Below, piece after piece: positions 5,293-61,535 of a stretch of DNA of 64,000 nucleotides; within the stretch, counting starts at the first letter, position 1; each line of letters begins with the position of its first letter. The DNA is from Candidatus Dormibacteria bacterium (GTDB lineage Bacteria; Chloroflexota; Dormibacteria; Aeolococcales; Aeolococcaceae). Location: NCBI GenBank assembly GCA_050011555.1, contig JBEKIT010000002.1, forward strand, positions 91,419 through 155,418, given 5' to 3'. The translations under genes and the position numbers were made by a program. The notes below the pieces were generated by a model. That model was given only the letters and a program-made list of their open reading frames with translations. It was not told where the DNA came from and searched no databases.

Positions 5293-6573
5293 TCACGACG
5301 CGCTGGCGAGGGCGCGCTCGAAACGCTCCGGCTTGGCGAAGGGCCCGATGACGGCGGCGCGGAGGCCCCCACTGCAGATCGCCCCGGCCATCGCCCGAAT
5401 CTCCTCCGCGGTCACCGCCTCGAGGGCGGCGATCACGTCGCTGGCGACCAGCACCTCGCCGGCCAGCAGCTCCTGCTGGCCCAGGAACTGGCTCATCGCC
5501 CCGGTCCCCTCCAGGTGGAGGAGGAGCCGGCCCTGGGCGTACTCCTTCGCCCGCGCGAGCTCGTCCGGCTCCACCACCGTGGTCGCCAGGCGGGCGAGCT
5601 CCTCCACCGCGACCCGCACCGCCTCGGCGGCACGCCGGGGTTCGCAGCCCAGGTAGATGCCGAGGCAGCCGCTGTCCCGCAGCTTGGCGACGAACGAATG
5701 GACGTCGTAGGCCAGGGCACGCTCCTCGCGCAGCTCCTGGAAGAGCCGGCTGGACATCCCCTCCCCGAGCACGACGTTGAGCAGATCGAGGACGGAGCGG
5801 CGGGGGTCAAGGTAGGAGCAGGCGTATCCCCCCAGGATGATGTTGGCCTGCTCGGTGCGCTTGTTCACCAGGCGGAGAGCGCTGCCGTGGCTCTCGGCGG
5901 CGGGGGCGGGCGGCGCATCAGCCGCCGCTCCGACCCTGCCCACCGCGCGCTCCAGCAGCTCGAGCGCCTGGGCGGGATCGACGGCCCCGGCCATGCTGAC
6001 CACCAGACGGGCCGGCCGGTAATGGCGGTCGAGGTGCCGGCGGCAGGCCTCGCCGTCGAAGCTCTGCACCGTCTCCTCGGTGCCGGCCACGTCCCATCCC
6101 AGCGGCTGGTCGGGGTACATCACCTCGTCGAAGAGGGTGCCGACGTGCTCCTGCGGGTTGTCCAGGCACATCCGCAGCTCCTCGATCACCACCTGGCGCT
6201 CCTTGGCCACCTCGGCCCCGTCCAGGACGGGATCGAAGACCATGCCCCCGAGCACCTCGCAGGCCAGCTCCAGGTGCTCGGCCGGCACCTTGGTGTAGAA
6301 GACGGTCGCCTCCTTGTCGGTGGCGGCGTTGATGGATCCGCCCACGCTCTCGATCGCCTCCGAGATGGCCCGGGCGGTGGGGAACCGCCCGCCCCCCTTG
6401 AACACCACGTGCTCGATGAAGTGGCTGAGCCCAGCGCTCGGCGCGTCCTCGTGGCGCGATCCCACAGAGAACATGAAGGCGACCGCCGCCGAGCGGCGCT
6501 CCCGCATCGGGGCGGCGATCAGCCGCGCGCCGGTGGGCAGGCGGTGCAGCGCGTAGGTCGGGTCGGCGCTCAT
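5293..6573 (-). CDS. M16 (insulinase/pitrilysin) family zinc peptidase
   Basis: Inverted zinc motif [10 protein letters not shown], with the downstream conserved Glu region. Confidence 0.85.
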
Positions 6574-6655
6574 GAGTCCCGCGAGTGTAGGCGCTCCCGC
6601 CGGTCCAACTCCACCGGGAGCCCCCCGAGCGGCCGCCGGCTCCGCGCCGGCCTCG

Positions 6656-7462
6656 CTACCCGCGCTCCCAGCGCGACGGCCGCCGGTCTCGCGCCGGGCC
6701 GGCGTCGCCGAACGCCCTGCCCCGCTGGGGTGGCCGGCCCAGCCGATCGGGCAGCTCGGGCAGGTCGGGCTGCGCCGGGCCGGTCGCGTGGATCACCACC
6801 CGCCTCGCCGGCTCCTTGCCGGTGCTCTCGGTGCGAACGCCCTCGTCATCCGCCAGGGTGAGGTGGATGGTGCGGCGCTCGTAGGCGTGCATCGGGTCGA
6901 GCGTATAGCGCTGACCGGTGCGCTTCACCCGGTTGGCGAGCCGCAGGGCCAGCTCGCGGACCTGCTCCTCGCGGCGGGCACGGTAGCGCTCGACATCGAG
7001 GATGACCCGGCGTCCCGACGCCTGCTCGGCATCTCCCATCATGAGGTTGACGACGGTCTGAAGCGCCCGGAGGGTCTCCCCCCGCCATCCGATCAGCAGC
7101 CCCAGGTCGTCGCCCGAGATGTCGAGGAGCGGGGGCGCCGGCGCCCCGCCCGGGGTGGCCGCGGCGCGGCGGGCGGCGATGCGCGCAGCGATGCCCATCC
7201 GCTCGAGCAGCTCGGCCAGGGTGGCCCGGGCCCGCGCGGTGTTCTCGTCGAGCTTGGCGACCCTCACCCGGGCCTCGGCCGCCGCCGACACCCGCTCGCC
7301 GGGGAGCACCCGAGCCGGGCGCGACAGCACCTCGACGGCGACGTCGGCGGCACCGGCTCCCAGCTCGGTCAGGGCGGCGGCGATGGCCTCCTCGACCGTC
7401 ACGCCGCTGGTCTCGACACTCGTCCACTCCGCCTCGGCGGCCACGGCGTCACCCTCGCTCAA
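6656..7462 (-). CDS. jag: Jag / R3H-domain RNA-binding protein (SpoIIIJ-associated). TTG start 7 nt downstream of AGGAGG.
   Basis: Jag_N-like N-terminus (VTVEEAIAAALTELG) followed by KH and R3H segments. Lies immediately downstream of yidC. Confidence 0.75.
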   Translation of the reverse strand: MSEGDAVAAEAEWTSVETSGVTVEEAIAAALTELGAGAADVAVEVLSRPARVLPGERVSAAAEARVRVAKLDENTARARATLAELLERMGIAARIAARRAAATPGGAPAPPLLDISGDDLGLLIGWRGETLRALQTVVNLMMGDAEQASGRRVILDVERYRARREEQVRELALRLANRVKRTGQRYTLDPMHAYERRTIHLTLADDEGVRTESTGKEPARRVVIHATGPAQPDLPELPDRLGRPPQRGRAFGDAGPARDRRPSRWERG

Positions 7463-9522: not shown

Positions 9523-9865
9523 CGGAGCTCTCCTGCCGTGAGACGTTCGCAAATCGCGCCCGGGGACGCCACGGAGCGCCGCGCCCGGACGGCGTGGTCA
9601 CGCCAGTATATTCGTTCCACCCACCCATCCCGGTCGCCCATCCGGGCGGCGACGCCGGCCGGCGGGCGCTCCGGCTCCCCGGCGGCCGCCTCGCTGACGC
9701 CTCGCGGCCTGCCGGCTGGGCCAGAGGGTCCCGCTTCCCGACCGGCTCGCCCGCCGGTTGTCGAGCGCCCCCGCCATTGCTAGACTGACGGATGCTCCGG
9801 CGGGACTAGTTCCCGCAGTCGCCCCAGCTAACGTTGACAGGCCCGTCCGGAAGTGGCGTCGAAGT

Positions 9866-9896
9866 TTATCCACTCCTGTTCACATCCTGTGGACAA
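9866..9896. promoter_or_regulatory. DnaA-box pair upstream of dnaA: TTATCCACT (9866-9874) and TGTGGACAA (9888-9896, the complement of TTGTCCACA)
   Basis: Matches of 8/9 and 9/9 to the TTATCCACA / TTGTCCACA consensus. Typical dnaA autoregulatory position. Confidence 0.5.
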
Positions 9897-9953
9897 GTGG
9901 CGACGGGAAGGCGGAGGTCGGTTTGTGGCTTCGGCGCATGGGCGACGCGAGGT

Positions 9954-11363
9954 GTGGTTTTGACGGTCGGGGCCGATGACGGCATCGTCCCGACGGACAC
10001 CGACCGCGCCTCGGCCCAGCAGGTCTGGAGCTCCGCGCAGGAGGAGCTCCGCTTCCAGCTGGCGCGGCCCAGCTACGAGACGTGGCTGGCCACCGCCACC
10101 CTCGTCGACAGCGACGGCCAGCGGTTCCTGATCGGGGTCCCGACCCGGCTGGCCCGCGACTGGGTCTCCGAGCGCTTCGTCTCGGTAATCCAGGAGGTCC
10201 TGTCCGGCCTTCTCGGTCATGAGTGCCAGGTGGAGATCACCGTCGACCCCATGGCCAGCCCCCCGCGCGACGAGCCGGCGCCACTCAGCGACTCCGACCT
10301 GGCCCCGGAGACCGACCTCGCCCCTGCCGGTGAGTCCCGGCTCAACCCGAACTTCACCTTCTCGAGCTTCGTCGTCGGCAATTCCTCGCGCTTCGCCCAC
10401 GCCGCGTGCCGGGCGGTCGCCGACGCTCCCGGCAAGGCCTACAACCCGCTCTTCCTGTACGGCGGTGTCGGCCTGGGGAAGACCCATCTCATGCACGCCA
10501 TCGGCCACGCGGTCCGCGAGGGCCACCGCCGGTCCCCGAAGGTCGCCTACATCACCTCCGAGAAATTCACGAACGAGATGATCTCTGCGATCCAGGAGAA
10601 CAAGACCAACGACTTCCGACATCGGTATCGGACCGTCGACGTCCTCCTCATCGACGACATCCAGTTCCTGGCCGGCAAGGACCGGACCCAGGAGGAGTTC
10701 TTCCATACCTTCAACGCCCTCCACGAGATCCAGAAGCAGATCGTGGTCAGTAGCGACCGCCCTCCCAAAGACATCCCCACCCTCGAGGACCGGTTGCGCA
10801 GCCGCTTCGAGGGTGGGCTGATGGCGGACATCCAGCCACCCGACGTGGAGACCCGGATGGCCATCCTCAAGACCAAGCTCGGTCCCCACAGCCGCCTCGT
10901 CCCGGACGAGGTCTGCAGCTTCATCGCCCACCGCATCCAGAGGAACATCCGGGAGCTGGAGGGGGCTCTCATCCGCGTCCTCGCCCACGCCTCGATCAAT
11001 GGCCACGCCATCACCCTCGAGATGGCCCAGCGCATCCTCAGCGACATCATCCCGGTGGCCGACGTCCAGCCGATCAGCATCCCCTTCATCCAGGAAACCG
11101 TCGCCGAGTACTACGGCATCGGCGTCGAGGAGATGAAGGGCAAGCGCCGGGACAAACACATCGTCTTCCCCCGCCAGGTCTCCATGTACCTCATCCGGGA
11201 GGAGACCGACTCCTCCCTGCCGGTGATCGGCGACGCCTTCAGCGGCCGGGATCACACCACCGCCCTCCACGCCATCGACAAGATCACCGAGCTGCTCCGC
11301 GAGGACACCCGCCTCCAGAGCGACATCCGCCTGCTCCGTCAGCGCCTCCATGCCCATGGCTGA
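9954..11363 (+). CDS. dnaA: Chromosomal replication initiator DnaA. Start GTG at about 9954 or TTG at 9960. There is no in-frame ATG.
   Basis: AAA+ Walker [11 protein letters not shown], Walker B, sensor motifs and the C-terminal DNA-binding domain HTTALHA. Confidence 0.9.
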
Positions 11364-12833: not shown

Positions 12834-13166
12834 TCAGCTCATCGCGGTGAAGCGCAGGCGCTTGACCGCGTCCGCACCGAGGCGGCCGTTGAGAGCTCTG
12901 ACGATGGTGGGCATCTCGAGCTGAAGCTGCTGGGCGAGGGCGCCGTTGCGGGTGGCCACGAGCAGGGTGCCGCGCTGGAGCGAGAGAGCCTCGCAGAGCG
13001 GCGCCAGAGCGGGCCCGACCACCTCGGCGAACGCCTCTTTGAGCTGGACCTCGCGCACCTCACGCTGGACGCCGAGGTGGCGCAGGGCGGTGCCGAGCAC
13101 GTCCGCGATGTGGAGAGGTCCGGGTTCGCGCTCCGGGCGCGGGGGCTGATCGCCGCCGCCGGTCAT
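12834..13166 (-). CDS. DUF721 / DciA-like protein, the usual recF-downstream gene
   Basis: Size, position after recF with a 4-nt overlap, and the conserved hydrophobic pattern of DUF721. Confidence 0.7.
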   Translation of the reverse strand: MTGGGDQPPRPEREPGPLHIADVLGTALRHLGVQREVREVQLKEAFAEVVGPALAPLCEALSLQRGTLLVATRNGALAQQLQLEMPTIVRALNGRLGADAVKRLRFTAMS

Positions 13167-14359
13167 CGTGCCAGCACCGTGCCCTGGCGGACCACGAAGT
13201 GCTGCGAGCGCCGCTCGCCGAAGAGCCCCTCCTCACTGCAGGTCACCATGGTCTGGGGCGCGCCGGCTCCGGTCGCGAGCGCGCCGAGCAGCCGCTCCCG
13301 CCGGGCCGGGTCGAGCTCGCTGAGCACGTCGTCGAGAAGCAGCAGAGGCATCCGGCCGGAGACCCGTCCGACCAGGCGGACCTCGGCGATCTTGGTGGCA
13401 AGGACCGCGGTCCGCTGCTGGCCCTGGGAGCCAGTCGAGCGTGCGGCGCGGTCGTTAAGGACGTACTCCATGTCGTCGCGGTGGGGACCGACCACGGTGG
13501 TGCCGCGTGCCAGCTCCTCAGCGTGAGCGCGGGCGAGCGTGCGCCGCAGGGCGGCCATGGCCTCCTCGCGGTTGTCGGTGGCGGTGGCACCGTGGGGGAC
13601 GTAGCGCATCTCGAGCGCGTCCGTCGCGTCGCTGATCTCTGCCATCGCGGCGGCTGCCAGGGGGCCCAGCGTCCTCACCAGACCGGTTCGCGCCACCCGA
13701 ACTCCGGCGCCGTGCAGGACCAGCGCGTCGTCGAAGGTGCGGAGATGGTCGGGCGCATCACCGCCCTCGAGGTGGAGGCGGCGCAGCAGCGAGTTGCGCT
13801 GCTCGAGGACGCGCCGGTAGCGGACCAGCTCGTCCGCCGCGCCCCGGTCGAGCTGGGCGAGCAGGACGTCGAGAAGCCGGCGCCGTGCCTCCGGGCCGGC
13901 CTTCACCAGCTGCAGGTCGTCGGGCCAGAAGAGCACCACCGGCCAGCGGCCGAGGAGGTCACGGGGGGCGATCGGATGGCCGTCACTCGACGTCGTCCGC
14001 GCGATCCGCGGCGGGGACTCGGCGGGATCCGCGGGACCGGCGCCGGGCTCGCGGACCCGGCGGAGGCGGAGGGCGAGGCTCTCGGACAGCGTCCCCCGGA
14101 CCAGCACCGCGTCCACCGCCGCCTCGTCGGCCCCCCAACGGAGCAGCTCGCCCGCGGTGGTCGTCCGAGGTGAACGGGTGAGCAGGAGCGTGGCCACGGC
14201 CTCCAGCAGGTTGGTCTTCCCCTGCGCGTTCTCGCCGACGAAGACGTTGAGCCCTGGCCCCAACCGGAGGCTCAGCTCGGCGTAGTTCCGGAAGTTGAAG
14301 AGCCGGAGGCTGGCCAGGCCCTCCTCGGGCGATGGAAGGGCCTCCTCCGGGGGGCTCAC
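13163..14359 (-). CDS. recF: DNA replication and repair protein RecF. GTG start overlaps the upstream stop (GTGA).
   Basis: LRLFNFRNY N-terminus, Walker A GENAQGKTNLLEA, ABC signature and the D-loop LLLDDVLSELD. Confidence 0.85.
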   Translation of the reverse strand: MSPPEEALPSPEEGLASLRLFNFRNYAELSLRLGPGLNVFVGENAQGKTNLLEAVATLLLTRSPRTTTAGELLRWGADEAAVDAVLVRGTLSESLALRLRRVREPGAGPADPAESPPRIARTTSSDGHPIAPRDLLGRWPVVLFWPDDLQLVKAGPEARRRLLDVLLAQLDRGAADELVRYRRVLEQRNSLLRRLHLEGGDAPDHLRTFDDALVLHGAGVRVARTGLVRTLGPLAAAAMAEISDATDALEMRYVPHGATATDNREEAMAALRRTLARAHAEELARGTTVVGPHRDDMEYVLNDRAARSTGSQGQQRTAVLATKIAEVRLVGRVSGRMPLLLLDDVLSELDPARRERLLGALATGAGAPQTMVTCSEEGLFGERRSQHFVVRQGTVLAR

Positions 14360-15501
14360 GAGCGTTTCAGGGCCACCGAGCGGATGAGCTCGGCGACCTC
14401 GGCGGCGGCCTCGGGGCGGGCCAGCTGTGCCACCGCGGCCTGCATCGAGAGCAGCGAGGGGGATCCCGGCACCGCCAGCTCGGCAACCTCGTCCACCAGC
14501 TCGGCGTCCCCGGGCACGTAGCGGCCGGCCCCGGTGTCGATGAGCCACTCCATGTTGCCCCGCTCCTGACCGGGCAGGAACCAGGTGATGAGCAGGGGGA
14601 GCCCGGCGCAGAGCGCCTCTGCGATCGTCCCGGGACCCGCTTTGGTGACCACGATGTCCGCCGCCGTCATCCACTGGGCCATGTTGGTCACGAATCCCTG
14701 CACGACGACCGGACGGTCCCGCCGGTCACGGAGGCCGGCGAGGGCCGCCTCGGCGCGGCGGTTGCGCCCGCAGATCACCACCAGGGAGATGTCCAGCCCG
14801 CTGCCGGCGAGCACCCGCGCCCGGCGCTCGATGTCGCCGGAGCCGTCCGCGCCGCTGCAGACCAGCACGGTGAACCGATCGGGGTCGAGCCCGAGCTGGA
14901 GCCGCTGGAGTCGGCGGGCATCCGGGTCCGAGTCATGGCCGGTGAAGCCGGCGTCGACCGGCAGGCCCACTTGGACCAGACGGTCGGCCGGCACCCGGTT
15001 GCGGCGGCAGCGATCCAGCCCGCCCGGGGAGGGGACGATCACCAGGTCGACGTCCGGAGAGGCCCAGAAGGTGTGGACGTCGACCAGGTCGGTGACGGCG
15101 GTGACGATCGGGACCCGGAGGCCGAGACGACGGCGCGCGCGCACCGCGGCACGATTCAGGAGAGGGTGGAAGGAGACGACGGCCGCCGGCTCCAGGGAGG
15201 TCATCAGCCGTGCGATGGCGGGGTCCACGCTGTGCAGCACGAGCTCCGAGACCCGCACCATGGCCCGGGAGTTGGTGGCGTGGAAGAGCCCGCCCCACAC
15301 CCAGGGGGCGTGCTGGATGAGGGGGCCGTACAGCGAGGCGGTGCGTCCCAGCAGGCGGGGCGACGCCGTGGCGAACGGGTCGACGATCTCCACCGTGAAC
15401 TCACCGGGGTGGGCGACCCCGAGGTGGTGGCTGACCGCGGTCGCCGCGGCCCGGTGCCCGCCACCGGTATCGGCGATCAGGAAGAGGAGTGGGCGGGACA
15501 C
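14356..15501 (-). CDS. GT28 family glycosyltransferase (MGDG synthase / diacylglycerol glycosyltransferase-like)
   Basis: LFLIADTGGGHRAAA N-terminal motif and a MurG/MGD-like C-terminal domain. Confidence 0.7.
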   Translation of the reverse strand: MSRPLLFLIADTGGGHRAAATAVSHHLGVAHPGEFTVEIVDPFATASPRLLGRTASLYGPLIQHAPWVWGGLFHATNSRAMVRVSELVLHSVDPAIARLMTSLEPAAVVSFHPLLNRAAVRARRRLGLRVPIVTAVTDLVDVHTFWASPDVDLVIVPSPGGLDRCRRNRVPADRLVQVGLPVDAGFTGHDSDPDARRLQRLQLGLDPDRFTVLVCSGADGSGDIERRARVLAGSGLDISLVVICGRNRRAEAALAGLRDRRDRPVVVQGFVTNMAQWMTAADIVVTKAGPGTIAEALCAGLPLLITWFLPGQERGNMEWLIDTGAGRYVPGDAELVDEVAELAVPGSPSLLSMQAAVAQLARPEAAAEVAELIRSVALKRS

Positions 15502-25391: not shown

Positions 25392-28669
<3,278 letters not shown>

Positions 28670-28843
28670 GGCGTCAGGGGCGAAGTTTGTCGCAACCGGG
28701 CCGCCTGGGTCCCGCCCGGACGCCTTGGGGCTGCGACGCTCCGGAGACGATTCCACCCGTGTGTTGCAACTGGCACCCTTTCGGGTATAGTCGTTGCAGG
28801 CGGGAGCTTTCGAGAGCCGCTGCCCCGGCCGTCCGTCGGCCAG

Positions 28844-31636
28844 ATGCCGCGTCATTGCCGCGAGCGCGTGCCTCCGAAGCTTCCCGGAATACGTGTGCTG
28901 CCGCCGCACGGCCATATCCTGCGGCGCATCGAGGTTGACAGTCCGCTGATCGCACCGGACCTCGCGCTCGACCGGCTTCACCTCATCGTGCCCGATGAGA
29001 GCGACGCCATGGTCGTGCTCACCACCCTTGCAAACGGCGGTGCCGCCGGAGCGGATCCCCGCGCCGTCTTTGCCGAGCGCCTCTCCGAGCTCGGCCACCT
29101 CACCGCCTCCTTCAGCGACGACGATCCCCCCCAGGTGCGGCTGGCGCTGCCCGATCTGACCCTGCAGTGCGTCCCCCAGCCCGACCCGGGCGGCGACCCC
29201 GCCCATCTCGCCCTCCGGGTGATCTCGCTCAAGCCGGTCAGCGACCATCCCGAGGGGGCCAAGATCCTGACCCTCACCGCCCGTCACCCGGTGGTCACCG
29301 CCGCCAACGGGGTGGCCAGCGACACCTTCCGGATCCTCGATTGGCGGCGTGCCGGTGCCAAGGCCGCCAAGAGCGAGCGCCTCTACGCCACCCTGAAGCT
29401 GGTCGAGCGCCTGGAGGGGGCGGAGAAGGGCCGAGCCCAGACCCAGCGAACCCGCTACATCGCCGCCCGCGAGTTCTGGCGCTGCAAGACCTGCCGGGCA
29501 CTCTGGCGGCCCGGGGAGCAGACCCAGTGCCCTTCCTGCGGACGCGAGTTCGGCGAGATGGACCGCAGGCAGCCGGAGATCGCCAAGGTCGAGTTCTCCG
29601 TTCCCGAGGGAGAGCCGCTCAACCTCGCCCCGGACGCGGCGGTGCTGGTGGAGCCGGAAGACGAGCCCAACTTCGTCGGCCGGGTCTCCCGGATCGACCA
29701 CCACCGGCACACCGTCGAGGTCACCACCCGCACCTTCGAGCATGCCGGGAGCGAGGGCTACATCACCCCCTCCTTCAACCGAGCCCTCTACCAGGCCAAG
29801 CGCTCGGTGCTGGCCGCGATCGCGACCCGGGATTTTGGGGTGGGTCTGCTCGCCCAGCTCCTGGTCGCCGCCGACACGGTGCGCTCGCCCGCGTACGTCC
29901 CGAGCACCGAGCCGGGGGGATGGCTCACCGAGGGGATGCAGGCGAACCCGCCCCAGGACCGGGCGGTCGCCCTCCTCTCCGGTCTCCAGGCCGGGCAGGC
30001 CGTCTTCATCCAGGGGCCGCCGGGGACCGGCAAGACGACGGTCATCGTGGAGGCCGTCAAACGGCGTCTCGCCGCCGATCCCGAGGAGCGGATCCTGGTC
30101 ACCTCCCACTCCAACCTGGCCGTCGACAACGCGCTGGAGCGGCTCGCCGGCACCCCCGGGATGCGGGCGGTGCGGGTCGCTCGGGCCGAGCGGGTCCACC
30201 CGGCGGTCGAGCGCTTCCGCTGCGACGACGAGGACGACCCACGGCTGATGGAGGCCAACTGCTACTTCGCCACCTGCGCGACGGCGGCCACCTCGGCGAT
30301 CACCGACATGAACTTCGACGTGGTCATCCTCGACGAGGCCAACAAGGCACGGGCCGACGAGTCCCTCCCAGCCCTGCGCCTCGGCTCGGCGCTCGCCCTG
30401 GTCGGCGACCACAAGCAGCTGCCCCCGGTCGAGGACGACTCCCTCTACGGCATCGTCGAGACCGATCCCTTCCTGGAGGAGCTGGTCAACACCTCTCTCT
30501 TCGAGATGGCCTGGGACGGCGGCCTTCCCGCCGAGGCCCGGTGCCTGCTGACCATCCAGCACCGGATGCACCCGCAGATCTCCGCCTACATCTCGCGTGC
30601 CTCCTACGAGGGCCAGCTCGAGGACGCACCGGAGGTTCAGGCCTATGAATTCGTGACCCGCAAGCCGCTGCCGGTCGCGCTTCACTTCGTCGACACCGAC
30701 GGCATGCGGGGAAGCCGGGAGCGCCGCGGCCCCGGTGGCGCCCTGCGCAACGAGACCGAGGTGCGGGTGGCGGCCCACGTGGTCCGCCTGCTCGACGAGC
30801 GCTGCCCGCGCGATCTGAGCATGGCGGTGATCGCCATGTACGCGGAGCAGGTGGAGCGGCTGCGCCAGGCTTTGGGGCGGCGCAAGTTCAAGCGGTCGGT
30901 GAAGATCGACACGGTCGACTCCTTCGAGGGCCGCGAGGAGGACCTGGTCGTCATCTCCCTGGTCCGCTCCAACGAGCGGGGCCGGATCGGCTTCCTGCGG
31001 GTGCCCAACCGGCTCAACGTCGCCGTCTCCCGGGCCAAGCGGCTGGTCGCCTGCATCGGCGATGCCAACACCCTGAGGTCCGGTGAGGAGTCGATGTACG
31101 GCGTGCTGGTCGAGGCTGCACGAGAGGCCGGCGGCTACGTCCTGGCCTCCGAGGTGGTGTCGCCGCGGCGCCGTGCCGACCATCCCTTCGGGACCGAAGG
31201 TGAGGCCGCTCCGGGCGAGGGCGCGGGGTCGCGCCGCCACCGCCGTCGCCGCCGGCCTGGCACCATCGCCGCGGTGCCGCCCGCGCTCGGGCCCGACGGT
31301 GGGCCGCTCGCTCCCGCGGCGGGCGCGGAGGGGCAGATCGGCCAGCCCGCGCGGCGCCGCCGTCGGCGCCGCCGTCGCGGGGGGTCGCACTCGGAGATGG
31401 GAGGAGCCCTCCCCGGGGCGGACGGCGAAGTGCCGCGTTCCGAGGGGGAGGCCGGCAGCACACCCCCGGCGGGCCAGGCCAACTCGCGGTCGCGCCGTCG
31501 CCGTCGCCGTCGCCACGGTCCGCGACCCCTGGGTGCGGGCGGCATCGAGGGCGGCTCGGCCACGCCGGGGACGGGTCCGAGTGGCGGCGAGAGCCCGGGC
31601 GGCGAGGCGGGCCCCCCGCCGTCCGCAGGCGACTGA
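28844..31636 (+). CDS. Superfamily 1 Upf1/DNA2-like helicase (AAA_11/AAA_12) with an N-terminal domain of unknown function containing a CxxC...CxxC zinc ribbon and a C-terminal poly-arginine tail. Start uncertain.
   Basis: Walker A GPPGTGKTT, DEANKA Walker B, QHRMHPQI, and motif VI VAVSRAKR. Zinc ribbon CKTCRALWRPGEQTQCPSCG. Tail has R6-R8 runs. Confidence 0.75.
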   Translation: MPRHCRERVPPKLPGIRVLPPHGHILRRIEVDSPLIAPDLALDRLHLIVPDESDAMVVLTTLANGGAAGADPRAVFAERLSELGHLTASFSDDDPPQVRLALPDLTLQCVPQPDPGGDPAHLALRVISLKPVSDHPEGAKILTLTARHPVVTAANGVASDTFRILDWRRAGAKAAKSERLYATLKLVERLEGAEKGRAQTQRTRYIAAREFWRCKTCRALWRPGEQTQCPSCGREFGEMDRRQPEIAKVEFSVPEGEPLNLAPDAAVLVEPEDEPNFVGRVSRIDHHRHTVEVTTRTFEHAGSEGYITPSFNRALYQAKRSVLAAIATRDFGVGLLAQLLVAADTVRSPAYVPSTEPGGWLTEGMQANPPQDRAVALLSGLQAGQAVFIQGPPGTGKTTVIVEAVKRRLAADPEERILVTSHSNLAVDNALERLAGTPGMRAVRVARAERVHPAVERFRCDDEDDPRLMEANCYFATCATAATSAITDMNFDVVILDEANKARADESLPALRLGSALALVGDHKQLPPVEDDSLYGIVETDPFLEELVNTSLFEMAWDGGLPAEARCLLTIQHRMHPQISAYISRASYEGQLEDAPEVQAYEFVTRKPLPVALHFVDTDGMRGSRERRGPGGALRNETEVRVAAHVVRLLDERCPRDLSMAVIAMYAEQVERLRQALGRRKFKRSVKIDTVDSFEGREEDLVVISLVRSNERGRIGFLRVPNRLNVAVSRAKRLVACIGDANTLRSGEESMYGVLVEAAREAGGYVLASEVVSPRRRADHPFGTEGEAAPGEGAGSRRHRRRRRPGTIAAVPPALGPDGGPLAPAAGAEGQIGQPARRRRRRRRRGGSHSEMGGALPGADGEVPRSEGEAGSTPPAGQANSRSRRRRRRRHGPRPLGAGGIEGGSATPGTGPSGGESPGGEAGPPPSAGD

Positions 31637-52408: not shown

Positions 52409-52484
52409 TGGTACCCGCTACAGGACTCGAACCTGTGACCAAGGGATTAAGAGTCCCCTGCTCTACCAACTGAGCTAAGCGGGC
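52409..52484 (-). tRNA. tRNA-Lys (anticodon CTT)
   Basis: The reverse complement GCCCGCTTAGCTCAGTTGGTAGAGCAGGGGACTCTTAATCCCTTGGTCACAGGTTCGAGTCCTGTAGCGGGTACCA folds as a canonical cloverleaf with encoded CCA. The 7-nt anticodon loop is CUCUUAA. Confidence 0.85.
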
Positions 52485-54583: not shown

Positions 54584-55303
54584 TTGGCCCATATACTCGA
54601 AGCCGACATGACCGAACGCGGCCGCATCCTGGTGGTCGACGACGAGCCCTCGATCACCGACTTCATCAAGCTGGGGCTGCACCACGAGGGTTACGAGGTG
54701 GTCACCGCCGCCGACGGCCGCCAGGGGCTGAGGGCGGTCGACGACTTCAAGCCCGACCTGGTGATCCTCGATATCATGATGCCGCGGCTGGACGGCTTCG
54801 AGCTCTGCCGGGCCATCGCCGGCGAGCCGCGGCGGGGGATCATCATCCTGAGCGCCCGGGACGAGACGACCGACCGCATCCGCGGCCTGGAGCTGGGCGC
54901 CGACGACTACCTGGTCAAGCCGTTCGAGTTCGGCGAGCTGCTGGCCCGGGTCAAGGCGGTGCTGCGCCGGCGGACCCCCGACCTGAATCGCGTGCTGGTG
55001 GTCGGCGACCTCAGCATCGACACCGCCACCCGGGAGGTCCGGGTCGGCGGCCGCCAGCTCGAGCTGTCGGTCCGCGAGTACGACCTCCTCCACTTCCTCG
55101 CGGTCCACGCCGACGAGGTGCTGCTCCGTCAGCGCATCCTCGACGAGGTCTGGGGCTACAACTTCTTCGGCGACGAGAACAACGTCGAGGTCTACATCCG
55201 GTACCTGCGGCAGAAGCTGGGCGACACCGACCACCAACGCATCCAGACGGTCCGGGGAGTCGGCTACCGGCTGCACGCGGTGAGCGGGGTGGCGCCGGCG
55301 TGA
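54584..55303 (+). CDS. OmpR-family response regulator
   Basis: Receiver DD...D...K residues and a winged-helix output domain (GYRL). Confidence 0.9.
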   Translation: MAHILEADMTERGRILVVDDEPSITDFIKLGLHHEGYEVVTAADGRQGLRAVDDFKPDLVILDIMMPRLDGFELCRAIAGEPRRGIIILSARDETTDRIRGLELGADDYLVKPFEFGELLARVKAVLRRRTPDLNRVLVVGDLSIDTATREVRVGGRQLELSVREYDLLHFLAVHADEVLLRQRILDEVWGYNFFGDENNVEVYIRYLRQKLGDTDHQRIQTVRGVGYRLHAVSGVAPA

Positions 55304-55312
55304 GGTGACCTC

Positions 55313-56755
55313 GTGAGCGGCTTCGGCCGGGCGCTCCGCAGCCTCCGCTGGCGGCTCACCCTCACCTACCTGGTCCTCATCGCGGTCCTGCTGGCGGGGC
55401 TCGGAGCCTTTCAGTACGTGAGCCTCCGGGGCAGCCTCATCGACGCCCGCGTCCAGGCGCTGAGCGGTGACCTGGTGGCCGCCCAGAGGCTATACGCGAG
55501 CGGTGACCTCTCGTCGGCCACCACCGCCGCCAGGGTGCGCACCCTCGGCACCCTGATCCGCTCGGCATCGGGGCAGTCCGTGACCGTGGCCCTCTTCGGT
55601 GCACGCGGTGTGCTCCGGGTGGTGGTCCCCGCCGGGGCCACCCCCCCGAAGCTCGGCCCCCTGACCTTCGACACCATCCTCGCCGACGGCACCCCGAGCC
55701 ACCAGATTGTCGCCTCCGACCTGGTGGCGGGCTTCCCCGTGGGGGTCGACGATCCCTCGCTGGTGCGCACCACCGCGGTGGTCGAGGTCTCGGAGCCGAT
55801 GGCCCCGATCGACAGCATCCTCTCCGGCGACGTCACGGGGCTGGCGGTGGGAGGGGGAGTGCTCCTGCTCCTCGTCCTGCTGGTCGGGCTCCTCCTCACC
55901 AATCGGGCGCTCCGCCCGCTGCGGCGGCTCACCGTCACCGCCGGTCAGCTGGCGAGCGGCGACCTGCGCGCACGCAGCCAGCTGTTCCCGCGGGACGACG
56001 AGGTGGGCCAGCTCGCCGGCGCCTTCGACCATATGGCGGATCGGATCGAGGTGGCGTTCGCGGTGCAGCAGGACTCGGAGAACCGGGTCCGGCGATTCAT
56101 CGCCGACGCGTCGCACGAGCTGCGGACGCCGGTCACCGCCCTCTCCGGCTACATCGAGGTGCTCCGCCGCGGCGCCGCGCAGAGCCCGGAGGCGATGGAC
56201 GCCGCGCTCGGCATGATGTCGCGGGAGGCGGACCGGCTGCGCGTGCTCGTCCTCGATCTGCTCACCCTCGCGCGGCTGGACTCACGGCAGCAGCAGCCGG
56301 AGGACTTCGACCTGGCGGCGGCGGTGGGTCGGCTCCTCGACGAGGGGGTGCCCGGGATGCCGCCGCGCGTCGATCGGGACCTGCCCAGGACGCCGGTGAT
56401 GGTCCACGGCGACCGCGGCGCCATCGCGACGATCGTCCGCAACCTGCTCACCAACGCCTGCAAGTACGCGCCGGGGGCTCGCCAGGTCTGGTCGGTGCGG
56501 GTCGACGCCAAGCGGGCACGGGTCGACGCGCACGACGACGGGCCGGGGATCCCGGCGAGCGACCTTCCCCACATCTTCGAGCGCTTCTACCGCGGGGAGA
56601 AGACGCGCAGTCGCGAGGAGGGGGGGAGTGGGCTCGGGCTCGCCATCGTGCTGGGTCTGGCGCGCGCCCAGGGCGGCGACGTCGCCATCGCCAGCGCCGA
56701 GGGGGCGGGGACCACGGTGACCTTCTGGCTGCCGCTGGCGGGAGCAGGGAGCTAG
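55313..56755 (+). CDS. Sensor histidine kinase (two TM segments, HAMP, HisKA, HATPase_c)
   Basis: H-box ASHELRTPVT, the N, G1 (DDGPGIP) and G2 (GGSGLGLAIV) boxes. Confidence 0.85.
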   Translation: MSGFGRALRSLRWRLTLTYLVLIAVLLAGLGAFQYVSLRGSLIDARVQALSGDLVAAQRLYASGDLSSATTAARVRTLGTLIRSASGQSVTVALFGARGVLRVVVPAGATPPKLGPLTFDTILADGTPSHQIVASDLVAGFPVGVDDPSLVRTTAVVEVSEPMAPIDSILSGDVTGLAVGGGVLLLLVLLVGLLLTNRALRPLRRLTVTAGQLASGDLRARSQLFPRDDEVGQLAGAFDHMADRIEVAFAVQQDSENRVRRFIADASHELRTPVTALSGYIEVLRRGAAQSPEAMDAALGMMSREADRLRVLVLDLLTLARLDSRQQQPEDFDLAAAVGRLLDEGVPGMPPRVDRDLPRTPVMVHGDRGAIATIVRNLLTNACKYAPGARQVWSVRVDAKRARVDAHDDGPGIPASDLPHIFERFYRGEKTRSREEGGSGLGLAIVLGLARAQGGDVAIASAEGAGTTVTFWLPLAGAGS

Positions 56756-56767
56756 CGGTCGCGCCGG

Positions 56768-58059
56768 TCAGGCGACCGGGATGGCCCGGATCTGATAGAC
56801 GGGCTTGGGCGGCAGGGGGGTGTCGACCAGGGCGTCCGCGAACGTCTGGCTGCAGCTGGTCTCCGCCTGCGTCTGGGTCGCGAGGACGTTGCCGCCCAGG
56901 CCGCCGCCGGGCAGCACGCATTCGTAGCGGGCCGACCCGTCGCCCCCGACCCACCCCACGAAGGCCGTGACGCTCACGTCCTAGGCGGCGGTGACGGTGG
57001 CCCCGGCGGCCGGGATGCTGCCCTCCCACTGATCTGCGTGTAGTAGTGGGTCACGCAGCTTCCCGAGCTGAGCGCCGGCACGTCCTCGGTGGTCCCGTCG
57101 CCGAAGTTCCAGTGCACCGAATCGGAGGGCGCCACCGAGAGATAGAAGGAGTAGACGATGGAGACGCCCTGGGAGTCGGGCGCGCCCATCAGGTCGTCGA
57201 TGGTCGGAGCCACGTCGTCGCCCTCGGGCTGTGGAGCGACCCAGAAGCAGGTGGGGGCGAAGACCAGGTAGTTGTCCGGGGCGTCGGTCTCGACCTGGCC
57301 GGCGGCGACGGTGAGCTGGGCGAGGGCCTGTGCCTCGGTCGCGGGTACCGAGAACGGCGCGGCAGGCGGGACGCCGGGTCCGGGGTTGTGGGCCGGTACG
57401 GTGGTCGCGCTCACGGTGAGCACCCCCGGGTCGTGGCAGAGGCCGTTCTGCCAGGTCCCCGGCGTGGTCGGGTCGGAGGTGACCTTCACGTCCACGACGT
57501 CGTCATCGATCCCGGAGAAGACCTACAGCCCGTTGGCGAGGCCCTTGCCGATCAGGTATGTCGGGGGCGCCGGAGGGTAGGGCGAGAGCGGCGCGTCCCA
57601 GTTGCCCCCGGGGACGGTCGTCGAGTCGCTGCCGGAGTAGAAAGCGTCGGTGTCGGTGGCGAACTCCCCGCCGGTGGTGCCGCTCCAGAAGGCGATCGGG
57701 AATGCCTCCAGTCTGCCCGCCCCGCCGGCGGGCGTGATCTCGGTCGATCGACCGATGAGCTGCGCCTCCTCCCACCCGGTGTCGATGGTGCAGGCGCCGG
57801 TCCGAACCTCGGCCGGGGTGCCCTGGCCGGTTCCCCCGTTGCGGCCGTCGGTGCCCGTGCCCGGGCAGTAGAGGGTGAGATCGCCGGCCGCCGTGAGGCT
57901 GCCGGAGGTTGGCCTGAGGATGGTGAGGCCCGTGGCGGTCTGACAATCGAAGGAGCCTGCGCCGCCGCCGCCGCCGCCCGCCGCTCGCGCCGTCCCGCCT
58001 GGCACGGACCAGAGGATTGCGAGGATTGGAAGCGCGATCATCGCGCGACAGAGCCTCAC
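56768..58059 (-). pseudogene. Secreted Gly/Thr-rich protein with a PKD-like domain, interrupted by an in-frame TAG (57523-57525) and a frame change near 56975
   Basis: Signal peptide MRLCRAMIALPILAILWS. ORF1 and ORF2 are in the same frame, separated only by TAG plus 9 codons. ORF2 has the PKD-like WNFGDGTT...THYYT. A third ORF continues in another frame to 56768. Confidence 0.45.
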
Positions 58060-58937
58060 ACGCCGCTCTCCGCGAGGATCGACGCTACATCGGCACCTGC
58101 GCTTGAGTTGACTGAGGCTTCCATCTCCAAGTAGTCACCCAAGGCCGGGGCGGTCTTCGTCTCAGTGATCTCGAGCTCCTGATACTCTTGGCCCGCGCCT
58201 ATTGGGTAGTCGGTGACCTGACCAGTCGCTGACGTCCACTCGGTGATACAGGGACCCGCCCAAGTCAACGCGTACGCGACGCCGGGAGTGCTGATGCGAG
58301 CTCCCGTGAACTCGGACATCTCATCAGCCGTGATGATCATTGCGTACACCTTGATCGGGTACTCGCAGGCGGCCGTTTCGTCCACTACCTTGCCGCCTTG
58401 TTCGATGAAGGCGGTCACGTTGTTCCCCGTCGGAAGCAGGAAGCGCATGAAATCGTACTGTGCGTGCTGCCCCGCCCACTCCCAAAGAGCCCAGAGGGTG
58501 CTGTCGAGCTGCACCCACGTCGCGAGGGCCGCATCGGTCACTTGACCACCGGTCAGGTTCTTCGTTTGTACTGGGAGAGGGTTCGGCGTGATCTCAGAGC
58601 ACGCAGGGACCATCGTCGCGTACATCTGGAACCACGCTTGCTTTACGGCCGTCAGGTTCGGGAGGTTGAGTTGGTCGTTGGCCAGCGCCGATGCTGCTCC
58701 GGGGATCGGCGTGTCCTGTGCGTCGCAAAACGAGGCGGGTGTGTCGGCCGGGGTTGACGTGGGTGTCGCCGATGGGACGTGGGCCCGCGTACTCGCCGGG
58801 ACGGCTGATGGAGATGCCGTTGCACCACAGCCCGGGAGCAGCCCGATCGCGATAGATAGCGCGATGATCCGGGCGGCACTTCTGAGCCAGCCCCGGCGCG
58901 CGTGGCTCGCGGGTATTCGTGCGGGACGGGCGCCCAT
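58056..58937 (-). CDS. Lipoprotein of unknown function. Start taken at the Met preceding the lipobox LLPGC.
   Basis: Signal peptide with lipobox. Reduced GC relative to its surroundings. Confidence 0.5.
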   Translation of the reverse strand: MGARPARIPASHARRGWLRSAARIIALSIAIGLLPGCGATASPSAVPASTRAHVPSATPTSTPADTPASFCDAQDTPIPGAASALANDQLNLPNLTAVKQAWFQMYATMVPACSEITPNPLPVQTKNLTGGQVTDAALATWVQLDSTLWALWEWAGQHAQYDFMRFLLPTGNNVTAFIEQGGKVVDETAACEYPIKVYAMIITADEMSEFTGARISTPGVAYALTWAGPCITEWTSATGQVTDYPIGAGQEYQELEITETKTAPALGDYLEMEASVNSSAGADVASILAESGV

Positions 58938-59245
58938 GGTCTCTCCTTCCCCAGAAACCGCAGGTTGCGGCGGCGCAGCATACAGACAACCGCACCCCGT
59001 TTGCTGAAGGCGCCGCTGGCCCCGATCCCGCGCTGGGTCACGGCGCACCTGATTGTCCGGAACGGGCCACTCCCCGCTACTCCCGGAGGTCACCATGACC
59101 GCCAGCCTATGGGGCGCCCTCAGACACGGGGCGGACATTCCAGACCTCGTTCCTTGATCGGCCCGCCAAGCCCGCTCCCCGACACCGCAGGCTGGGTGAT
59201 GTAGCTGAGCGAGTGTACCTGTGCGGCTTCCGCCCCGTGGGCGGT

Positions 59246-59731
59246 TCACCCGGGGTGCAAACGCCCGTCGCGGCTGGCATCGAAGTCGCGCACGAAGTCC
59301 TGGAGGTCGTCTACCATGAGAAGCCTCCGGGCGCCCTTGGAGCGAAGGTTATCGAACAGATTCGCGGCGAAGCGGCGCGCCAGGCGGCCGTCGCCCGGTC
59401 TACGGTAGTCCTCGAGGTCCACCATGAAACGGAAGCTGGCGAAGTCGAGGACACCGTCCGACTCGTAGTCGTGGCCATCGATGACGTCTGCCAGCATGGC
59501 CGCGTTCCAGAGCGAGACCCCCTCGGTCCCCCAGTCGGTCGTGAAGGGTCGACTGTCAACGCCGGACAGCGCGGCCTCTCGGGCGGCTGCGACGACGGCG
59601 TCGAGCGAGAATGGCCCATCAATGAAGGGTTGCCACTCGATGTGGCTGTCGTCGTCTATGGCCATGAGATCTCCCAAGCGGCGCCGATGATTCTTATGGT
59701 TGTCAAGCGATTCCTGCCGGCGCCCAGTCAC
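59246..59731 (-). CDS. Small ORF in the position of a putative immunity gene (function unknown). It overlaps the upstream toxin-like gene by 4 nt.
   Basis: Translational coupling (ATGA) and reduced GC. No family motif recognised. Confidence 0.4.
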   Translation of the reverse strand: MTGRRQESLDNHKNHRRRLGDLMAIDDDSHIEWQPFIDGPFSLDAVVAAAREAALSGVDSRPFTTDWGTEGVSLWNAAMLADVIDGHDYESDGVLDFASFRFMVDLEDYRRPGDGRLARRFAANLFDNLRSKGARRLLMVDDLQDFVRDFDASRDGRLHPG

Positions 59732-60741
59732 CTCCGAAGGCCGCGCAGTGCCTCTATCTCTGTCAGGTCGGATTCACGGCCATCCAAAATTGCACTCGCC
59801 ACCTGTCCAGGCGTCAACGTTCCGAACTGCCCGTTGGCGCTCTTCAGCGCGCTTCGAACTGTGACGATGGTGGCCGAGCCGCCCGGCGGTCCGGTGAGCG
59901 TCTTGAACTCTGTAGGCTGTCCGTCGACCAGCGCATCGTACATACGTTGACCGGGAACCCCAGATTCCGCCACCGAGACCACGGTGTGCCCTTCGCCGGC
60001 GAGGAACTGGCCCACCCGGAGTTCATCCGGTGAGAACGGGCGCGCAGAATCGTCCACCGCGGACCCGTCGTCGGCGGCCGGCGGGTTGAGGTTGGCATCG
60101 CCCCCGCCCCCCGGCCCAAGGTCCCCATGGAAGTCGCCCCCGGCGCTGTGCCACAGCCCACCCTCGACCTCCGAGAGCGCCCCATTGAGCGCGCTGCTCG
60201 CCGCCTCTCCGGCGTCGAAGATGGGCACGACGTCGTCGCCCGTCTGGTCGAAGTCGGGGTCCGTCCGATCCAGGAGGTCGGCCCCGAGCTGGCTGAGGGC
60301 GTCAGAGCCGAAGCCACTGAGGGCGCCTCCCTGGGCGGCGTTGAGGACGGTGAGCGCGGCCATCAGGCCGAGCTGGATCCAGTGCTCGTTCTGGGCGTGC
60401 TCGAGCTCGTCGGCGTAGTCGCGCAGCTCCCGGGCGAAGGCGACGAGGTTGTCGCCCAGAGTGTTGAGGACGGTGGAGGGCGAGCCCCGGGTGCCGGCCG
60501 TCCACGCGCCGCGGAATGAGGTGGCGGCCGTCCCGGTCCACGATTGGGTGAGGGTGATGACGGCGTCATCGAGGGCGAGGGTCGCCCTGCGGTACTCGGC
60601 GGTGAGCGCGTCGACCATCTCGGCGATCTGGCGGATGCGCCCCGGATCGCCGGCCGGCCCGGTGAGGAAGCCGCCCATGTCGCCGAGGACGTTGCCCGCA
60701 CCGGTGAGCAGGAAGGTGGACAGGTCTCCCCCCGCTGACAT
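59728..60741 (-). CDS. Putative WXG100-like polymorphic toxin: N-terminal WXG100-like domain, Gly/Asp-rich linker, and C-terminal restriction-endonuclease-fold (PD-(D/E)xK) nuclease-like domain
   Basis: LTQSWTGTAATSFRGAW (WxG) with a YADELEHAQ helix. C-terminal AESG...YDALVDGQPTEFKTL fits a D-x9-E-x-K core. GC drops across the C-terminal half. Confidence 0.55.
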   Translation of the reverse strand: MSAGGDLSTFLLTGAGNVLGDMGGFLTGPAGDPGRIRQIAEMVDALTAEYRRATLALDDAVITLTQSWTGTAATSFRGAWTAGTRGSPSTVLNTLGDNLVAFARELRDYADELEHAQNEHWIQLGLMAALTVLNAAQGGALSGFGSDALSQLGADLLDRTDPDFDQTGDDVVPIFDAGEAASSALNGALSEVEGGLWHSAGGDFHGDLGPGGGGDANLNPPAADDGSAVDDSARPFSPDELRVGQFLAGEGHTVVSVAESGVPGQRMYDALVDGQPTEFKTLTGPPGGSATIVTVRSALKSANGQFGTLTPGQVASAILDGRESDLTEIEALRGLRR

Positions 60742-60871: not shown

Positions 60872-61445
60872 CTACGGCGCCAGCCGCTCCCTCACCCCGG
60901 CGGCACCGGCGCGGCGGAAGCGGATGCGGTCGTGGAGCCGGTCCTCTCGCCCCTGCCAGAACTCGAAGATCTCCGGCACGACCCGATAGCCGCCCCACTC
61001 CGGAGGCCGGGAGATGGCGTTGTCGTCGGGGAACCGGCGTCTCGCCTCTGCCCACCGGCGCTCCAGCTCGTCCCGCCCGGAGACCACCTGGCTCTGCGGG
61101 GATGCCCACACCGACAGCCGTCCGCCCACCGGGCCGTCCCGGAAGTGGGCGTCCGAGAGCTCATCCCCGAGCCGTTCGACGCGCCCCTCGACCCGCCTGT
61201 CGGTGGATCGGCCGGGTCCAGCGCAGCACCAGGGCAACCTCTGCCCGTCCGTCCATCTCCACGCCCTTGCGGCTCAGCCGGTGGGTGTGGAAGACGAGCC
61301 CGTCGTGATCCGCCCCGCGCAGCAGGACGACGCGCACCGAGGGCGCTCCCGCGGGCGACACGGTTGCCAGCGCCATCGCGTTGGCCGCCTCGTCGCCTGC
61401 CTCGCGCCAGCGCAAGCCACGAGTGGAGCGCCGCGAACGGGTCAT
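60872..61445 (-). pseudogene. pdxH: Pyridoxamine/pyridoxine 5'-phosphate oxidase with an apparent frameshift near 61195-61240
   Basis: ORF 61161-61445 encodes the N-terminal half (VRVVLLRGADHDGLVFHTHRLSRKG). ORF 60872-61237 encodes the C-terminal half (RVEGRVERL...SRPPEWGGYRVVPEIFEFWQGREDRLHDRIRF) in another frame. Confidence 0.7.
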
Positions 61446-61535
61446 CGCCGAGGTCCGCCGAGCGGAGGGGCGGATGGTCGTCGGGGAGGTCTGGTGGCAT
61501 CCAAGCTCCTGCCGGCAGGCCGCCTAAGGTGCAGC

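Follow-up and report, generated by a model that had tools for sequence, protein, structure and literature searches.

Recombinational replacement of the C-terminal domain is the defining behaviour of polymorphic toxin systems, and the WXG-linked toxins catalogued among them include Tox-REase-1 and -6, which have a restriction-endonuclease fold with the motif E, D, ExK, Q (PMC3482391) and whose models are not in Pfam. A second relevant family, Pfam PF18451 (CdiA_C), is that of the CdiA-CT(II) tRNase of Burkholderia pseudomallei 1026b and of SitA3 from Myxococcus (PMC9990079; PMC8546572). Here we describe a locus to which both are close, in a 64-kb stretch of a Candidatus Dormibacteria contig (the window; coordinates are window positions throughout, and L-numbers denote loci of related strains). 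It is a polymorphic-toxin/immunity module, ordinary of its kind, on the chromosome of an uncultured peat or bog bacterium of Candidatus Dormibacteria. We consider it quite probable that its intact form is a WXG100-targeted, presumably type VII secretion system (T7SS)-exported, Mg2+-dependent toxin of the tRNase type that is neutralised by an immunity protein, that toxin tail, immunity gene and lipoprotein gene are swapped between strains as a cassette, and that the toxin has recently been inactivated in the window while the immunity gene was kept.

Nuclease-like domain, putative immunity partner and cassette exchange

The original prediction, made from the letters of the window, had read a PD-(D/E)xK-like core (YDALVDG...TEFK) in the C-terminal part of the toxin, and these residues are indeed the conserved D...ExK core of a PD-(D/E)xK domain family. 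A word-indexed homology search with the toxin tail returned one protein, and an exhaustive HMMER (phmmer) search, which covered 1.84 billion representatives, gave 142 representative relatives of the domain; in 106 of these the match reaches the last residue of the protein. The N-terminal regions of the relatives include WXG100/WXG100_2, RHS, PAAR, PT-HINT, eCIS core, Mu F, PrsW and DUF6861 domains, all of them usual in the delivery of polymorphic toxins, and CdiA_C (PF18451) is matched by 121 of 134 relatives, with a best E of 6.8e-19. When a profile of 48 toxin-domain sequences is compared with the PDB it finds 4g6v_A (E 1.4e-3), and the alignment places the invariant E, D and E of the family on chain residues 66, 93 and 102. 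The intervals between these residues, 27 and 9, match those between E187, D214 and D223, which together with K242 form the active site of the Bp1026b toxin (PMC9086364), and by the same alignment these three correspond to E240, D269 and E278 of the window toxin. Across the 48 sequences, positions E17, D46, E55, K57 and Q82 of the family alignment are invariant or nearly so. An AlphaFold2 (AF2) model of the closest intact relative (P0010, 64% identical; pLDDT 95.7) has the topology βαβββαβαββ, which is also that of the Bp1026b toxin (PMC9086364). Judged by sequence, then, the toxin domain is a divergent relative of the CdiA_C family, short of strict Pfam membership, and not a new family; by homology to CdiA-CT(II) of 1026b its substrate would be RNA. 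A de novo designed protein of 78 residues, 9xzp_A, matches the toxin profile better (E 2e-4) than does the natural homologue 4g6v_A, over a helix-strand-strand region that includes an FK motif, which is probably a convergence of idealised α/β sequence.

At the other end of the protein, the WXG100-like region that had been proposed (SWTGTAATSFRGAW) holds up: toxin residues 29-141 pass the Pfam model PF25547 (WXG100_2) with 37 bits against a cut-off of 27, and the W-T-G lies within SWTGTAA. PF06013 (E 0.0027) and TIGR03930 (E 1.6e-4) match the N-terminus below threshold, and the top match among PDB sequences is a weak one to a mycobacterial ESAT-6-like protein (4i0x_A, E 0.09). The Gly/Asp-rich linker that had been described behind this domain is also there. 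We take the WXG100-like domain to be a presumed type VII secretion targeting domain; in intact toxins such as those of L001 and L064 it would direct the protein to a type VII-like secretion route, and the flexible linker would join it to a PD-(D/E)xK nuclease that is a homologue of CdiA-CT(II), the Mg2+-dependent tRNase of Burkholderia pseudomallei 1026b.

Directly downstream of the toxin lies a gene for a 139-aa protein that had been placed in the immunity position by gene order, and its conservation alongside the toxin supports that assignment. We gathered 45 genome loci by scanning DNA for a degenerate coding pattern of DAxVDGxPTEFK; they come from Streptomyces, Nocardia, Amycolatopsis, Mycolicibacterium, Ktedonobacteria, other Chloroflexota and filamentous cyanobacteria. 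The profile of the immunity family finds an open reading frame (ORF) of 118-135 aa in 43 of them, and in 39 of the 45 this ORF follows the toxin domain directly and in the same orientation, usually at a distance of -10 to +33 nt. Because the family sits directly downstream of the toxin domain in so many loci, the 139-aa protein is likely to be the cognate immunity protein, a function to which its position, conservation and co-variation all point. It would bind and neutralise the nuclease in the producer cell and its kin, and the start of its gene once overlapped the toxin stop codon by 10 nt.

Are toxin and immunity genes exchanged as a unit? The mean GC of the window is 0.719 (standard deviation 0.038, 300-nt windows), and GC is 0.646 in the toxin tail, 0.657 in the immunity gene and 0.614 in the mature part of the lipoprotein gene that follows, before it is again 0.71-0.73 downstream. 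GC at third codon positions (GC3) behaves likewise, with 0.92 in the N-terminal part of the toxin, 0.71 in its tail, 0.64 after TEFK and about 0.89 again in the next gene. The fall in GC that had been proposed is therefore present, with actual values of 0.60-0.66 rather than 0.58-0.63. Compared with L006, which is the closest strain by its flanking genes (91-95% protein identity), nucleotide identity is about 97% to position 60400 and 92-94% to 59900, then 55-62% from just after TEFK over what remains of the toxin domain and over the immunity gene; in the spacer it is close to random, the lipoprotein gene has 46-66%, and at about 57900 identity is 93-98% again. At the protein level L006 is the most distant strain within the cassette (toxin tail 67%, immunity protein 45%, lipoprotein 47%), whereas L001, whose flanks are 71-84% identical to those of the window, has 75-81% identity over the cassette (81% in the toxin tail and 80% in the immunity protein). 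Toxin tail, immunity protein and lipoprotein thus co-vary against the phylogeny of the flanks. Two further strains, L065 and L066, have an L001-type WXG100_2 N-terminus followed by an unrelated DUF6883 domain (43 bits) and a DUF4926-like ORF of 74 aa; L001 and L065 are 99.1% identical in nucleotide sequence up to L001 position 7552, in the GGLWHGGGG linker, and unrelated beyond it.

Because related strains hold either a divergent cassette or the DUF6883/DUF4926-like one at the same site, cassette swapping is shown, and in these alignments the recombined segment, made up of toxin tail, immunity and lipoprotein genes, matches the low-GC stretch. The swapped toxin-plus-immunity cassette of the original prediction is in this way supported, and the same WXG100_2 N-terminus is met with different C-termini in other strains. 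The low-GC cassette passes between strains by recombination, and the breaks fall either in the linker or right behind the catalytic TEFK. The DUF6883 and DUF4926-like genes, which lie at the same chromosomal site (L065 4001-5396; L066), suggest another toxin/immunity pair.

The lipoprotein was called correctly, as it has a signal peptide and a lipobox (...IAIGLLPG|CG) whose Cys is nearly invariant in 23 homologues, as read from the alignment. A lipoprotein with 100% identity to it is recorded at NCBI from a Candidatus Dormibacteria MAG. Searches of Pfam, NCBIfam and PDB sequences gave no match for the 139-aa protein, the lipoprotein or a 178-aa ORF. The lipoprotein occurs only in Dormibacteria-type loci (metagenome contigs) and not at the toxin loci of other phyla, and it follows the toxin/immunity type rather than the flanking genes, being 47% identical to that of L006 and 75% to that of L001. 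We speculate, while thinking it unlikely, that the 139-aa protein founds an immunity family dedicated to CdiA_C-like toxins of monoderm phyla and that the disulfide-bonded lipoprotein is a functional third component of the cassette. The lipoprotein does co-vary with the toxin/immunity type and share the low-GC tract; on this reading it might serve, for example, as a surface receptor, a self-identity determinant or an extracytoplasmic protective factor. If this were true, no earlier module for interbacterial antagonism and kin discrimination would be on record for Candidatus Dormibacterota.

Truncation of the toxin and how it may be read

In the window the toxin gene is cut short. A change of TGG to TGA at codon 338 costs the protein its last 24 residues: the window reads GLRR*LGAGRNRLTTIRIIGAAWEISWP where L001 (396 aa) reads GLRRWLGAGRNRLTTIRIIGAGWEISWP in the same frame. 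What is lost is conserved in the family, including a nearly invariant IIG motif, and comprises both terminal β-strands together with the last part of the final helix (model residues 114-137, with strands E122-128 and E133-136). The 3' remnant left behind the stop overlaps the start of the immunity gene by 10 nt (ATGGCCATAG). Gone from the window toxin as well is a 34-aa segment (ADPVTDAAEVAAGAGLEV...LALGG, after LNAAQGG) that is present in all orthologues. Six contigs, each from a different short-read assembly (JGI and ENA), carry this allele with 100% identity over 1086 nt, and it occurs also in L053, L054, L055 and L062, which makes at least 10 independent contigs altogether, and for this reason we regard the truncation as real. 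The L062 toxin (424-1500) is itself a recombinant, with its first ~100 codons of the L006 type and the rest identical to the window, including the 34-aa deletion and the TGA. The toxin is intact in L001, L002 and L064, and a sister lineage (L006, L007 and L063) has a frameshift in the toxin linker. The toxin copy in the window is thus truncated and, to judge from what its sequence has lost, probably inactive. Given the loss of 24 residues to the TGA and of 34 to the deletion, the present state would most likely be an inactive toxin remnant beside a retained functional immunity gene, and the kept immunity gene would protect the cell from the intact toxins of neighbours of the same type.

Several observations weigh against the picture of a T7SS-exported CdiA_C-like nuclease that has lately been lost. 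The window toxin scores 13.1 bits with CdiA_C, below the Pfam gathering threshold of 26.6 (E 0.11), and the Pfam scan gave no CdiA_C match for the intact orthologues L001 and L064 either; kinship with CdiA_C rests on transitive homology and on a modelled structure, that of a relative with 64% identity and not of the window protein. Among the ten largest ORFs of the window are dnaA, a recF-like gene, a superfamily-1 helicase, transporters and a KAS, and none of the ten is an FtsK/SpoIIIE ATPase such as EssC or EccC; going by them, the secretion machinery is not local to the toxin locus. A literature search found nothing on a T7SS in Dormibacteria. Finally, none of the catalytic residues has been lost and the 23 codons beyond the TGA are undamaged, from which we conclude that the TGA mutation is recent.

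One might take this last point to mean that the toxin is still functional, either because the 337-aa product is active without its last two β-strands or because low-level read-through of the UGA gives an attenuated full-length toxin. UGA followed by C, as in the window, is a leaky stop context, in which a near-cognate tRNA-Trp would put back the original Trp, and the 23 codons downstream lead in frame to the original TAG. The allele is also widespread in peat and bog metagenomes, where 106 blocks of the collection index its exact 139-aa immunity protein (a count for that protein, not for the toxin), and the truncated form is found in every contig inspected. But in 106 relatives the conservation of the lost segment runs to the very last residue, and this segment holds the nearly invariant IIG motif and two of the core strands in a high-confidence model; the same allele carries the 34-aa deletion, and the adjoining genes are decaying too. 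Moreover, the downstream codons are partly constrained by the overlapping start of the immunity gene and its ribosome-binding site, and identical sequences that represent one clonal population are uninformative on selection. We give a still-active toxin only a small chance.

It is less likely again that the pair is new at the level of toxin and immunity families, as the original prediction had suggested it might be; for the toxin this is already refuted, which leaves the immunity protein only. It is true that neither the C-terminal domain nor the 139-aa protein has an above-threshold match in Pfam, NCBIfam or PDB sequences, that the immunity family goes without a Pfam or NCBIfam name across 22 diverse members, and that the close homologues of the 139-aa protein (73-99% identical) carry no annotation. 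Imm49 and Imm-PA2201, the immunity proteins listed for Tox-REase-1 and -6, do not match the 139-aa family; a Foldseek search of the PDB with the immunity model (built with 7 close sequences) gave nothing significant, and hhalign between the immunity and toxin profiles, run as a control, gave no relation. Against this, the toxin is tied to CdiA_C and Bp1026b by its phmmer relatives, by the profile-to-PDB match, by its fold and by the alignment of its active site. The domain had already been described from CdiA, SitA3 and many other polymorphic toxins (PMC9990079; PMC8546572), and WXG-linked toxins of the restriction-endonuclease fold were catalogued in Actinobacteria and Chloroflexi in 2012 (PMC3482391). 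As for the immunity partner, a family that is unnamed yet so widespread is unannotated rather than unique.

That the stop codon, the deletion and the frameshifts are sequencing or assembly errors in genes that are really intact is very improbable, because, although the long-read metagenome-assembled genomes (MAGs) L004 (6902-7320) and L043 (reverse, 5457-6670) do show toxin-gene frameshifts, and that of L043 is absent from L064, an Illumina contig whose toxin is of the same type (88% identity over its aa 1-140), so that some apparent toxin decay in long-read MAGs may be sequencing error, the window allele with its TGA and deletion, and the same split gene calls for the two adjoining genes (PNPOx and the 430-aa gene), recur across the independent short-read assemblies, on which ground we rejected assembly error.

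Gene layout and neighbouring genes

Features of the toxin/immunity locus and its flanks, in order along the window.
Feature	Position	Strand	Remarks
Response regulator, OmpR-type	54584-55303	+	Converges on the cluster; syntenic neighbour
Histidine kinase, HAMP/HisKA/HATPase_c	55313-56755	+	Converges on the cluster; syntenic neighbour
Pseudogene of 430-aa secreted protein	56768..58059	-	In-frame TAG at 57523-57525, frameshift near 57022-57025; tblastn with the L001 orthologue
Lipoprotein gene, 293 aa	58056..58937	-	LLPG|C lipobox, four conserved Cys; in the variable low-GC cassette
Spacer between immunity and lipoprotein genes, 308 nt	58938..59245	-	Strongly strain-divergent, near-random against L006; no Rfam match
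Putative immunity gene, 139 aa, intact	59246..59665	-	Homologues 73-99% identical; family downstream of toxin in 39/45 loci
Untranslated toxin 3' remnant, 23 codons and original TAG	59656..59727	-	Would encode the last two β-strands
Premature TGA for conserved Trp (TGG), codon 338	59728..59730	-	Window compared with the L001 reading
Truncated polymorphic toxin gene, 337 aa	59728..60741	-	Intact orthologues 394-396 aa (L001 396, L064 394)
Predicted CdiA_C-like PD-(D/E)xK nuclease (tRNase-type) domain, incomplete	59731..60036	-	E240, D269, E278-x-K280 and Q305 present; last 24 residues gone
Gly/Asp-rich linker	60037..60300	-	Exchange site of whole C-terminal domains; L001/L065 breakpoint at about window 60110
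WXG100_2 N-terminal domain, aa 29-141	60319..60657	-	WXG motif in SWTGTAA
Site of 102-nt (34-aa) in-frame deletion	60322..60336	-	Translations, BLAST high-scoring pair (HSP) junctions, 102-gap column

The four minus-strand ORFs of the original prediction are all where it had put them, and its three 4-nt overlaps fare differently. Those at 59728/59731 and 59246/59249 come from extending the longest ORF to the most upstream GTG, and only the overlap at 58056/58059 may be real, because homologues place the other two starts further downstream. With the revised starts ATG 59665 and ATG 58937 we rejected tight 4-nt translational coupling across all four ORFs. What had been called a 161-aa ORF is a gene of 139 aa that begins at ATG 59665, which is preceded by GGGAG; all 7 database homologues and every independent gene call start at MAIDDD. 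Similarly, a supposed 397-aa ORF is the lipoprotein gene of 293 aa, whose ATG 58937 is preceded by AAGGAGAG.

All relatives share one gene order, with a BNR/sortilin-like gene, PNPOx, toxin, immunity protein, lipoprotein, the 430-aa protein, the convergent histidine kinase and OmpR-type regulator, PAP2 and PHP; the related MAGs carry the label uncultured Chloroflexia. The two-component pair does converge on the cluster, as had been noted, and beyond the conserved synteny we found nothing in support of a functional tie to it. Upstream of the toxin, the PNPOx (pyridoxamine-5'-phosphate oxidase) gene (60872-61464, minus strand) is a pseudogene with frameshifts near 61405 and 61196 relative to a 210-aa orthologue, and the same split into 94 and 85 or 71 aa recurs across independent assemblies. 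At the far end of the cluster, the last gene had been described as disrupted, which comparison with the 430-aa orthologue of L001 confirms (in-frame TAG and frameshift). In L061 (6625-7692, a bog metagenome contig) this TAG is absent and there is an ORF of 355 aa, so the lesion is polymorphic in the population. Its label as a PKD protein does not stand: PKD_4 reaches 16.4 bits against a threshold of 27, the intact 430-aa orthologue matches with E 0.069, and with no PKD score above the Pfam threshold we rejected the assignment.

A promoter and terminator scan of the locus gave chance-level results only, an Rfam scan of the whole window gave a single match, the tRNA gene at 52412-52484 (minus strand), and no other copies of the toxin, immunity or lipoprotein families were found elsewhere in the window. 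The window also holds dnaA (9810-11360, plus strand) and a RecF/SMC_N-type gene (13166-14725, minus strand), and is therefore probably near the chromosomal replication origin. A 1434-aa ORF at 27332-31633 (plus strand) ends in an AAA_11/AAA_12 superfamily-1 helicase, and about 850 residues of its N-terminal part are without a Pfam match.

Comparison with described systems

The nearest characterised system is CdiA-CT(II)/CdiI of B. pseudomallei 1026b (PDB 4G6V; PF18451; PD-(D/E)xK clan). As far as a model of a relative can tell, the toxin domains have the same fold and topology, and the acidic catalytic residues and a GQ motif of 1026b align with the window family. In both systems a small immunity gene lies directly downstream and the domain occupies the extreme C-terminus of a modular polymorphic delivery protein. 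Identity between the two toxins is about 17%, however, and the catalytic Lys is at the classical ExK position (K280) in the window toxin but on the following helix (K242) in 1026b. The delivery parts differ too, with a WXG100-type N-terminus here and a two-partner-secretion CdiA filament there, and the 139-aa protein has no detectable sequence similarity to CdiI of 1026b, only a generic similarity of fold. Unlike 1026b, the host here is a soil bacterium of a monoderm lineage, and its toxin copy is truncated.

EsaD, the Tel toxins and YeeF are examples of type VII WXG/LXG polymorphic toxins. The window toxin shares with such toxins of Firmicutes, Actinobacteria and Chloroflexi the WXG100-like helical domain, the linker, the variable C-terminal toxin domain and the adjacent immunity gene, and in them, too, the C-terminal toxin domain is replaced by recombination (PMC3482391). 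It differs in that neither T7SS machinery nor Lap/WXG helper genes lie beside the toxin or among the large ORFs of the window. In SitA3 of Myxococcus xanthus, too, a toxin domain of the same PF18451 family serves as an exchangeable module that is paired with a cognate immunity protein (PMC8546572; PMC9990079). SitA3 is itself a lipoprotein delivered by outer-membrane exchange, whereas the window toxin is of the WXG100 type, with the lipoprotein encoded by a gene of its own further downstream.

Orphan immunity genes and toxin remnants are a general phenomenon at contact-dependent inhibition (CDI), Rhs and LXG loci. The window resembles such loci in having an intact immunity gene beside a disrupted toxin, with independent disruptions in sister lineages. 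The remnant here, though, is the main toxin gene in its full-length context, ended by a single nonsense codon, and not a displaced 3' fragment. Set beside all these systems, the locus adds Candidatus Dormibacterota, an uncultured phylum of soil and peat, to the groups with WXG100-linked polymorphic nuclease toxins. It offers a clean natural case of cassette exchange, in which strands were joined in the linker and right behind the catalytic motif, and one of toxin decay with retention of immunity that recurs in many independent metagenomes. The widespread unannotated immunity family of this CdiA_C-like toxin branch (Actinomycetota, Chloroflexota, Cyanobacteria) could enter the family databases. 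What is new is modest, namely the phylum, an immunity family that is widespread yet without a name, and a lipoprotein that co-varies with the pair; each element is of a kind already known from the systems above, and the concepts that describe them are unchanged.

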